A stretch of 63,982 nt of DNA, filler included, from Reclinomonas americana ATCC 50394 (taxonomy: Eukaryota), in NCBI GenBank assembly GCA_048213135.1. It is 13 parts of 13 records of this genome, joined end to end, with 100 filler letters (N's around TTAATTAATTAA, not from the genome) between each part and the next. Parts side by side here need not be neighbours in the genome. Positions count along the whole stretch, not along the records: positions 6,243 to 13,587 come from AFZH01020339.1; 12 more parts are not named here. One strand, given 5' to 3'. The notes under the pieces are model-generated. The model ran no database searches, was not told the DNA's origin, and worked only from the letters and a program-made list of their open reading frames with translations. Shown here one piece after another: positions 10,401 through 11,626 of this stretch; position 1 is the first letter of the stretch, and the number at the start of each line of letters is the position of its first letter. The position numbers and the translations under genes are program-made.

Positions 10401-11626
10401 CCGATGCTGTGTGGCACGGCACAGCCAGGAACAATCAGTATGTCGCATCTCCAGTGCACGACGAAAGAAAAGCAAAGAAGGAGGTGCAACCAGAAACAAT
10501 GGGCACTGGCGCGATGCACATCCTCACCTGGATGCAATCTCAGTCGAAAGTCGCTGAGAACTTCTGCCAACAGTCGGGATCGGAAAACAGCTTCTTGTTC
10601 TTGTTTCCGTTGTCGCAGAGCTGCAAGTGTCAGTCTGACTTGCTCATGCCATAAAGGCAGAGGAAAGTGACCATGCTCCTTGATGGCGAGCACGAGCGAC
10701 CGCACATACGGCGATGCAAATGCTGGATCATGCATGAGGTTCAGGATTTTAGAGTCGGCAACAGAGGACAAACCACTGCACATTCTCACCACCCTCGTAT
10801 GCTTCTGAGCCGTGGTAACACGCGAATCCAGCAAACACATTCTCCGCCAACACCCTCTCGTCAACTGGGCTCACACCCTGCCGCTGTGCACTGCGAGTGA
10901 CCAACACAAACACATTCGCGTGTGAGACACAGCAAGCTTCAGCCGCGCTGCAAAATGCAATCCATGCACCTATCAATGGAACGGCAGCAGTTCATCAACA
11001 AGATCACCACTGCGCCCCTTGCAGTATGCTGCCGCAGTAGATTCATGCAGAACTCGACGAGTTTCAGCGATTTTACGCCATCAATCTGTGCACACTTTCG
11101 TCAACTCGCTAGCGGTTTGTCAACCTTGAACTCATTCTCAGACATTAATAACTTACCAGACGCGCTCTCGGGATGAGGTTCACATCGCGCGGAAGGAGCA
11201 ACAGGTCTCCGTCACTCGCCAGCCCATGGCCAGAAAAGAACAACAGCACGCATTCGCACTCCTCGGTCACCTTGTCTCGCACGAAGTCGTCAAACACGGA
11301 GTGCATGGTGTCACCGATCACATTTTCGTGCGAGCAGACGTGGAAGCCATTCTCGACAAGCACAGGTTGCAGGAGAGCTGTGTGGGGAGTGAGAGCGAGC
11401 GAGACACATTGAGAAAGATGGAGAAAGCCGGGTCCGCTCACCTACATCATACGGCGGGTTCCTGAGCATTGTGAAGGGTTCCGCGCCGTCGCAAGTGTTG
11501 CCAATGAGCAATGCCACGCGTTTGTGCCGCCTGCAGGAAGGTGAGAGTTCAAGTACGAACGATGCATCTGACAACAACAATGAAAGACACGCGCAACTCA
11601 TGCGGCACGCCACTCCCACTTGCCAT
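7430..11626 (-). CDS. NLR-like STAND protein B: caspase-like (peptidase C14) domain, NB-ARC, TPR repeats (multi-exon)
   Basis: RVALLIGN..LRNPPYDV, catalytic His in LLFFSGHG (~11225), catalytic Cys in ILLMNCCR (~10985), p10-like FAGFACYHGSEAYEG and SPYVRSL. Walker A VLTGDGGTGKS, Walker B GVMMLDNAG, IVVVTSR, IGLPVTVALA. TPRs in ORF 7430-9295. Clear paralogue of 1083-5540. Confidence 0.85.

Follow-up and report, generated by a model that had tools for sequence, protein, structure and literature searches.

A predicted Reclinomonas americana gene joining a paracaspase-like C14 protease domain to a STAND-type NTPase and TPR repeats

We examined a 63,982-nucleotide (nt) stretch of DNA from Reclinomonas americana ATCC 50394 (assembly GCA_048213135.1; hereafter the window), in which 13 parts of 13 records are joined end to end and parts side by side need not be neighbours in the genome. 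On its minus strand lies a predicted gene (gene 1, 7430–11601) whose nine exons, joined in silico, give a coding sequence (CDS) of 3300 nt in which 1099 codons are followed by the only stop. We read it as a functional gene for an NLR-like (STAND) receptor that would carry a protease, a nucleoside triphosphatase (NTPase) and TPR repeats in one chain of ~1099 amino acids (aa), and we put the probability of this reading at roughly 0.55; the activation, activity, substrate and biological role proposed for it below would follow by analogy with STAND proteins. A first-pass annotation had placed a caspase-like protease, fused directly to an NB-ARC-TPR protein, at 10525–11530, and these limits agree with the outer edges of the exons for the Peptidase_C14 (C14) domain, which are an acceptor at 11531|11530 and a donor at 10528|10527.

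The motifs named at that stage (ALLIGN, LRNP, FFSGHG, LLMNCCRS and a p10-like region) all lie on the minus strand. RVALLIGN occupies 11520–11497 and LRNPPYD 11466–11446, FFSGHG is found at 11240–11223 (His104 codon, 11228–11226) and LLMNCCRS at 11001–10978 (Asn159 codon, 10992–10990; Cys161 codon, 10986–10984), and a p10-like stretch with GSEAYEG follows at 10811–10791. Lettering the exons A to I from the 5′ end, exons A–E encode the C14 domain. Exon B, which carries the histidine (the His exon), by itself exceeded the Pfam cut-off for Peptidase_C14 (PF00656; 32.4 bits versus 21.4), and the other four C14 exons had no Pfam match when scanned singly. Relatives were gathered via the His exon, which makes the scores of the remaining exons independent of that choice, and the spliced product was then scored against their profiles. 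On a profile of the 22 bacterial C14 domains closest to the whole spliced domain, residues 26–240 scored 96.0 bits; taken in parts, the His exon scored 48.5 bits, exons C–E 20.8, exons D–E 13.1 and exon A 9.1, the last aligned where it belongs in the profile. A profile of four C14 sequences gave 88.5 bits for residues 26–215 of the spliced product (best of 500 shuffles, 3.0 bits), and one of 120 bacterial 'caspase family' domains gave 58.0 bits over residues 22–163. Using tblastn, residues 1–265 matched 75 of 76 bacterial loci, the best of which (Bradyrhizobium, L005) was 27.9% identical over 272 columns spanning residues 1–265. Because of the whole-domain profile score, the exon D–E scores and the tblastn span, we consider the domain complete, including its p10-like half; gene 1 is thus predicted to encode a complete Peptidase_C14 domain.

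We then located the catalytic residues by alignment with hmmalign. His104, Cys161 and Arg162 are the residues found in invariant columns (120/120 and 22/22 relatives), in keeping with the intact His-Cys dyad claimed at the outset. Within the closer set, Gly34, Leu46, Asn48, Asp52, Gly103, His104, Gly105, Cys161 and Arg162 are as in all 22 relatives, Pro49 is shared with 21 of the 22 and Asn35 with 15. Glu198 stands at a position that holds Asp in 21 of 22 relatives, and the adjoining Gly199 is kept. The loop from Cys161 to the next strand is 5 residues shorter than in the relatives. Paracaspases are single-chain enzymes, and the short loop suggests that the predicted protease would likewise be single-chain and need no p20/p10 cleavage.

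A profile built from the relatives and the His exon, scored against solved structures, placed MALT1 paracaspase first (86.9 bits; e.g. 3v4o), followed by caspase-1 (31.6 bits), metacaspase-9 (19.7 bits) and metacaspase-4 (18.7 bits). No solved C14 chain was found among PDB sequences with the His exon alone, and a PDB sequence search with the frame around the p10-like exon returned no relevant match. Together with the bacterial profile score, the MALT1 match upholds the bacterial-type, paracaspase-like affinity first proposed: placed by profile scores rather than by a tree, the predicted domain is of a bacterial/paracaspase-like type within the DxCR 'caspase family' group, and it is very divergent. 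When 1.84 billion representatives were searched by phmmer with the His exon, 11 sequences matched at E ≤ 0.001, namely five C14 proteins (35.8–38.1 bits) and six PD40-repeat proteins; the latter we dismissed as repeat-driven false matches. The SGHG..DGDLLLLPRD stretch (11157–11375, minus strand) draws spurious matches to PD40 beta-propeller repeats. Among the best His-exon matches is a 924-aa protein (P0003) with four tandem C14 domains, three with GHG and one with GCG.

Bacterial relatives found by pattern scan were mostly 27–44% identical over ~60 residues. All 27 of the closest bacterial open reading frames (ORFs) examined contain C14, with Sel1, TPR, WD40, FGE-sulfatase, PG-binding, SH3 and MORN as partner domains, and a STAND NTPase was found in none of the 27; the 120 database entries that match this C14 type best list neither NB-ARC nor NACHT. 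Since the closest C14 relatives carry no STAND NTPase, the fusion was not simply inherited from them, and the sequences compared give no sign of recent transfer or of a fusion inherited as a unit. The His exon found no close relative in an indexed database of longer proteins, nor did residues 1–440 of the stop-to-stop frame 7430–9325 (the NTPase–linker region, which contains exon I) in a protein database. A search of genome contigs with the alignment of exon I and its paralogue gave no match, and metagenome contigs contained none to either the His exon or the alignment of exon H. Single exons met only sub-threshold or generic models in NCBIfam and PADLOC (caspase_w_EACC1, 19.2 bits against a cut-off of 140; FxSxx_TPR, 89.3 bits against 300).

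The exon limits were set by reading the minus strand and locating splice sites. Exon A (11442–11601), whose 5′ limit is uncertain, includes RVALLIGN as the first strand of the C14 domain and, in the LRNPPYD loop, the conserved Asp52. Exon B (11157–11377) holds the p20 core with the catalytic His104 in FFSGHG, and exon C (10970–11085) holds Cys161 in LLMNCCRS, with Asn159 at −2 and Arg162 at +1, aligned to the DaCR motif of the relatives. The p10-like half starts in exon D (10790–10890; AGFACYHGSEAYEG), and exon E (10528–10722) contains the end of the C14 domain and a linker toward the NTPase. Beyond intron 5 (10186–10527), exon F (10022–10185) encodes the P-loop GDGGTGKS, exon G (9706–9940) a Walker B-like VMMLDNA, and exon H (9365–9617) an IVVVTSR strand and a helical part. 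The first part of exon I (8036–9284) covers a helical region, with an acidic insert, between the NTPase and the TPRs. Its second part (7430–8035) includes the stop codon and the repeats of types TPR_10 and TPR_12, which we presume to be the sensor. All eight introns start with GT and end with CAG (64, 71, 79, 67, 342, 81, 88 and 80 nt, in order). The proposed frame was the best-scoring one for every exon under a codon model that had the large last exon as its training set, and the codon-usage support for exon A was weak (−2.7). Intron 5, the 342-nt one, is open in the coding frame, and the stop-to-stop frame 10013–10870 (minus strand) runs through the last C14 exon, this intron and the P-loop exon with zero stops. 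Because of this, the C14–NTPase fusion is independent of splicing of the long intron, and the earlier statement that the protease is in frame with the NTPase holds even for the unspliced sequence.

Scanned with Pfam, the P-loop exon matched generic P-loop families only, all under their cut-offs, and exons G, H and I had no NB-ARC match when scanned singly. Residues 241–560 of the spliced product were scored on whole-ORF profiles of NB-ARC and NACHT reference genes, which came from Pfam-based genome searches within a single bacterial order; the NB-ARC profile comprised 30 bacterial ORFs with NB-ARC matches of their own at 47.3–83.1 bits. The spliced NTPase scored 19.1 bits on this profile, a value reached by none of 1000 shuffles (best shuffle, 2.2 bits), and 3.0 bits on the NACHT control profile, equalled by 4 of 1000 shuffles. 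Its motifs aligned to the NB-ARC profile in order: the P-loop of exon F, VMMLDNA of exon G against 'LlilDdv', and IVVVTSR against 'littse'. These scores, with references from one bacterial order, weakly suggest an NTPase that is NB-ARC-like rather than NACHT. Further on, EIGLPV (residues 536–541) and YRVHDE (residues 685–690) look like the GLPL and MHD motifs and were aligned by no profile; they lie farther from the TSR strand than is usual for NB-ARC.

The last 200 residues matched TPR_10 and TPR_12 in Pfam (84.8 and 74.7 bits), and with these repeats, a P-loop STAND-type NTPase and the protease in one open CDS, the physical fusion first described stands. AlphaFold2, given exon I as a two-sequence alignment, modelled the TPR repeats with high confidence, and a fold search of the model returned kinesin light chain (KLC) TPRs as the best match (E = 7.7e-8) and also a Podospora TPR repeat protein. 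The predicted local distance difference test score was below 50 for nearly all of residues 1–403 of exon I; given the poor model outside the TPRs, the fold search informs on the TPRs only. The stretch of ~400 residues that links the NTPase to the TPRs had no Pfam match, nor any PDB sequence match within residues 1–250 of exon I, and for residues 1–400 of exon I the leads from ESM Atlas were all TPR-like.

In the window, 4 kb downstream of gene 1 and on the same strand, lies a tandem paralogue (gene 2, 1086–5540, minus strand), which repeats the 5′ element and the NTPase and TPR exons of gene 1 and differs in its N-terminal module. The two genes are homologous in DNA over 7508–10416 versus 1278–4150 (81.5%) and over the 5′ element, 11561–11838 versus 5473–5779 (78%). 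Homology is absent over the 1.1 kb holding the C14 exons, where gene 2 has an N-terminal module of ~250 aa that is apparently helical, unrelated to C14 and without a Pfam match. This module ends in a poly-Gln tract, and gene 1 has no such tract. Both breakpoints fall within gene 1 introns, namely the putative first intron and intron 5, which shares homology with gene 2 over its 3′-terminal 231 nt (88.7% identity with a single 1-nt gap). By our reading of the sequence, the two genes agree in the phases of the flanking introns. Since an interval has been swapped with intronic breakpoints and matching phases, the protease is an exchangeable N-terminal cassette, and probably one of several such cassettes in the gene family.

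The paralogue also bears out the exon calls of the NTPase–TPR part. Exons F, G and H align without gaps, and the five gaps of exon I (24, 3, 3, 3 and 114) each have a length divisible by 3, as against eight of nine intron gaps that do not. Protein identity between the genes is 94% for exon H and 74% for the last exon. The ratio of nonsynonymous (dN) to synonymous (dS) divergence was 0.19–0.32 in all shared parts (0.19 in exon H), so that both back ends have been kept as coding sequence; these ratios place the NTPase and TPR parts under purifying selection. From 0.16–0.22 in the NTPase exons, dS rises to 0.96 in the TPR part (7430–10185 versus 1086–3921, minus strand), a rise that suggests later recombination or gene conversion on the 5′ side of the pair. 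dN is 0.235 at the TPR end versus 0.03–0.07 in the NTPase exons. The window holds three copies of the 5′ element at ~78% identity (7093–7205, 5473–5779 and 11561–11838). Two are upstream of the two STAND genes; the third adjoins an assembly gap near 6150–6195, where it may mark the 5′ part of one more gene that is interrupted.

Several results weigh against a functional receptor gene. The Cys exon alone was not significant (3.8 bits on the 22-domain profile), so that its support comes solely from its right order within the whole-domain alignment, and the p10-like half gained only 0.6 bits on the 120-domain profile of more distant relatives. The label 'NB-ARC' given at first gained weak support from the bacterial reference profile and fell short in Pfam, where the P-loop exon scored 12.1 bits against a cut-off of 23.5 (PF00931). 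No STAND protein appeared among the PDB sequences when exon H or residues 1–250 of exon I served as query. No homologue above ~30–40% identity appeared in any database searched. There is no C14 paralogue within the window, so the selection estimates cover the NTPase and TPR parts only. The nine-exon model is itself a prediction from sequence, with an uncertain N-terminus: the in-frame ATG (11601–11599) is preceded, at a distance of 25 nt, by an out-of-frame one at 11626 that opens a 25-codon upstream frame. Finally, the residue two before the catalytic Cys is Asp in 142 of 142 relatives. Here it is Asn159, an exchange that the first-pass annotation had noted and that could impair substrate binding.

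The 5′ end and the splicing of the C14 part bear on whether the fused protein is made at all. Exon A could begin with the in-frame ATG or, alternatively, at the acceptor 11531|11530 after a short upstream exon beginning at ATG 11626. The candidate start ATGAGT of gene 1 (11599–11604) is GTGAGT, a consensus donor, in gene 2 (5510–5515, minus strand); a possible start codon and a possible splice donor differ here by one G/A exchange. This ambiguous start is among the points in favour of an alternative that we regard as unlikely, namely that the fused protein is never made, because gene 1 is decaying or not expressed or because the C14 part is spliced otherwise than modelled, the change of frame from the Cys exon to the p10-like exon being, for example, a true frameshift. 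The frame switch from exon C to exon D demands an intron of either 79 or 22 nt, both predicted from the sequence, the window holds assembly gaps (1056 N), and the databases searched contained no annotated protein identical or close to the exons. Such a failure would nevertheless have to accommodate five consecutive exons in frame, with canonical GT..CAG borders and intron sizes typical of the gene, whose spliced product follows the whole bacterial domain order with family-typical spacing, keeps all catalytic residues intact and leads into a downstream part under purifying selection. For intron 3, the 79-nt model scored 96.0 bits versus 94.7 for the 22-nt model on the 22-domain profile, and the 22-nt model was 5 bits above it on the small four-sequence profile. 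The 79-nt intron spares a 14-residue insertion and fits the family spacing, and the other short introns measure 64–88 nt. We consider the 22-nt intron, which would use the second in-frame acceptor of exon D (10948|10947), less likely, given its 1.3 bits lower score on the better profile and its odd size.

Asn159 has a bearing on the activity of the predicted protease. In MALT1, Asp365, Asp462 and Glu500 line the Arg-binding S1 pocket, and we take Asp52, position 159 and Glu198 to be their counterparts; on this mapping Asn159 would neutralise the middle one of three pocket acids. With one of three conserved S1-pocket acids replaced, the P1 preference of the predicted protease would probably be basic still, yet weakened or altered. 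It is also conceivable, if improbable, that the C14 module is dead or strongly impaired and acts as a peptide-binding, scaffolding or dominant-negative head, with the receptor signalling by recruitment. Inactive caspase homologues usually lose the dyad itself; here His104, Gly103 and Gly105, Cys161 and Arg162 are all kept, Asn is a conservative, polar replacement, and the two other conserved acidic positions, Asp52 and Glu198, remain. Loss of activity would fit the invariance of the replaced Asp among the 142 relatives and the codon usage, for which the 265 codons of the C14 exons total a score of 27.0, less per codon than the 83.2 of the 217 codons in the NTPase exons. It also has a precedent: according to the cited passage of PMC7159879, ~70% of the caspase domains at one bacterial effector position lack catalytic activity.

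If gene 1 does encode a functional receptor, a ligand bound by the TPR region might release the NTPase from a closed state, upon which nucleotide exchange would drive oligomerisation. MALT1 and initiator caspases are activated by dimerisation, and the N-terminal protease domains, once brought together, could be switched on in the same manner and cleave substrates in a defence or cell-death response. The protein might instead be made and active for a regulated proteolysis unrelated to non-self sensing, such as developmental or stress cell death or the cleavage of a housekeeping substrate, with the TPRs binding an endogenous partner; we give this only a small chance. TPRs of the KLC type are general peptide binders, and the scanned ORFs of the window included neither a defence gene nor a gasdermin-like one. 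For the gasdermin-like families this means the 127 ORFs scanned with Pfam, with ~100 further ORFs of at least 110 aa outside that scan and exon-split genes liable to be missed. Tandem duplication, cassette exchange and a divergent TPR end speak for non-self sensing, as features that are typical of NLR-like families (PMC12881547, in the passages cited). More tentatively, and with some doubt on our part, the receptor may belong, in a protist lineage without close relatives in current protein collections, to an NLR-like family with intron-recombined effector cassettes, among them the paracaspase-like protease and the helical module of gene 2, and work as a self-contained 'one-chain apoptosome', in which the Asn-for-Asp exchange would give a cleavage specificity unlike those of known paracaspases, metacaspases and caspases.

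Receptors of related build have been described. Metacaspase–NACHT–WD40 proteins are widespread in bacteria and NB-ARC occurs on two Chloroflexus metacaspases, according to the cited part of PMC3501461, and in that of PMC7159879 caspase-like peptidases sit N-terminally in STAND-type components of conflict systems of multicellular bacteria. Gasdermins are controlled by fungal NLRs with CHAT or S8 proteases in the passages cited from PMC12881547 and PMC9815663, and Peptidase_C14 is absent from the lists of fungal NLR N-terminal domains in the cited sections of PMC4986451 and PMC9815663. The logic of a protease on a STAND protein is therefore in print for bacteria and fungi, as far as the cited passages go (PMC13581612, PMC3501461, PMC12881547). 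Since similar protease–STAND fusions were already published for bacteria, the first-pass reading overstated the novelty: gene 1 is a very divergent eukaryotic case of a known design, with one unusual pocket residue and a clear record of cassette exchange, and brings no new principle. We found no description of a eukaryotic C14–NB-ARC–TPR protein in the full-text literature, a search with subscription journals and supplements outside its scope.

In the published bacterial fusions, as predicted for gene 1, a single chain combines a caspase-fold protease at the N-terminus with a STAND NTPase and with repeats at the C-terminus, and the proposed direct effector mechanism works without an adaptor. 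Gene 1 differs from them in being eukaryotic, with eight introns, in having a TPR sensor rather than a beta-propeller, and in an NTPase that is only weakly NB-ARC-like. MALT1 shares the ..ALLIGN.., L.NP..D, GHG and D.CR motifs with the C14 domain of gene 1, which lacks death and Ig domains and has Asn where MALT1 has Asp. Bacterial DxCR 'caspase family' proteins (from Bradyrhizobium, Bacteroidota and others) are the closest sequence relatives of the predicted protease; unlike gene 1, several have signal peptide-like N-termini, and the 27 examined are without a STAND NTPase. Fungal NLRs with CHAT or S8 heads resemble it, in the descriptions cited, in a eukaryotic NLR-like build with an N-terminal protease effector, NB-ARC and TPR_10–12 back ends and variable N-termini, whereas the protease of gene 1 is of the C14 family (PF00656) and no gasdermin gene lies among the window ORFs scanned. 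The Apaf-1/caspase-9 apoptosome offers an analogy for the proposed working, in that STAND oligomerisation there leads to proximity activation of a caspase-fold protease; its protease is separate and recruited by CARD and its sensor is WD40, in contrast to the fused protease and TPR sensor of gene 1.

If the protein is made and active, a eukaryote too would use the direct protease-on-STAND design, built here from a paracaspase-like C14 domain; so far, in the sources cited, this design is in print for multicellular bacteria and for fungi with CHAT or S8 heads. It would then bear on how the split Apaf-1/caspase and CARD–BCL10–MALT1 systems of animals relate to fused ancestors or analogues, and Asn159 would provide a natural test of the part that the conserved Asp plays in paracaspase-type specificity. 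The paralogue pair serves as a clean example of effector-cassette exchange through introns. We regard the significance as moderate and as hinging on expression and activity.

The remainder of the window is eukaryotic DNA in character, as is the window as a whole: it is rich in dinucleotide repeats, with a G + C content of ~48–62% in 2-kb windows. Other genes recognised include one for a MOV10-type helicase beta-barrel (23862–24611, plus strand), a glyoxalase II C-terminus split over two frames (29526–30301, plus strand), a SHIPPO-repeat protein gene (30668–31321, minus strand) and a SNAPC3 gene in a single frame (32242–33237, plus strand). The SHIPPO repeat hints at a flagellated organism, and the source is an intron-bearing and probably flagellated eukaryote. 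An Rfam scan of the window gave no match. Long (CT)n, (CA)n and (GA)n tracts lie beside N gaps of fixed size at 13300–13900, 16400–17000 and 5900–6450, and a strong strand composition skew extends over 16–26 kb of the window.

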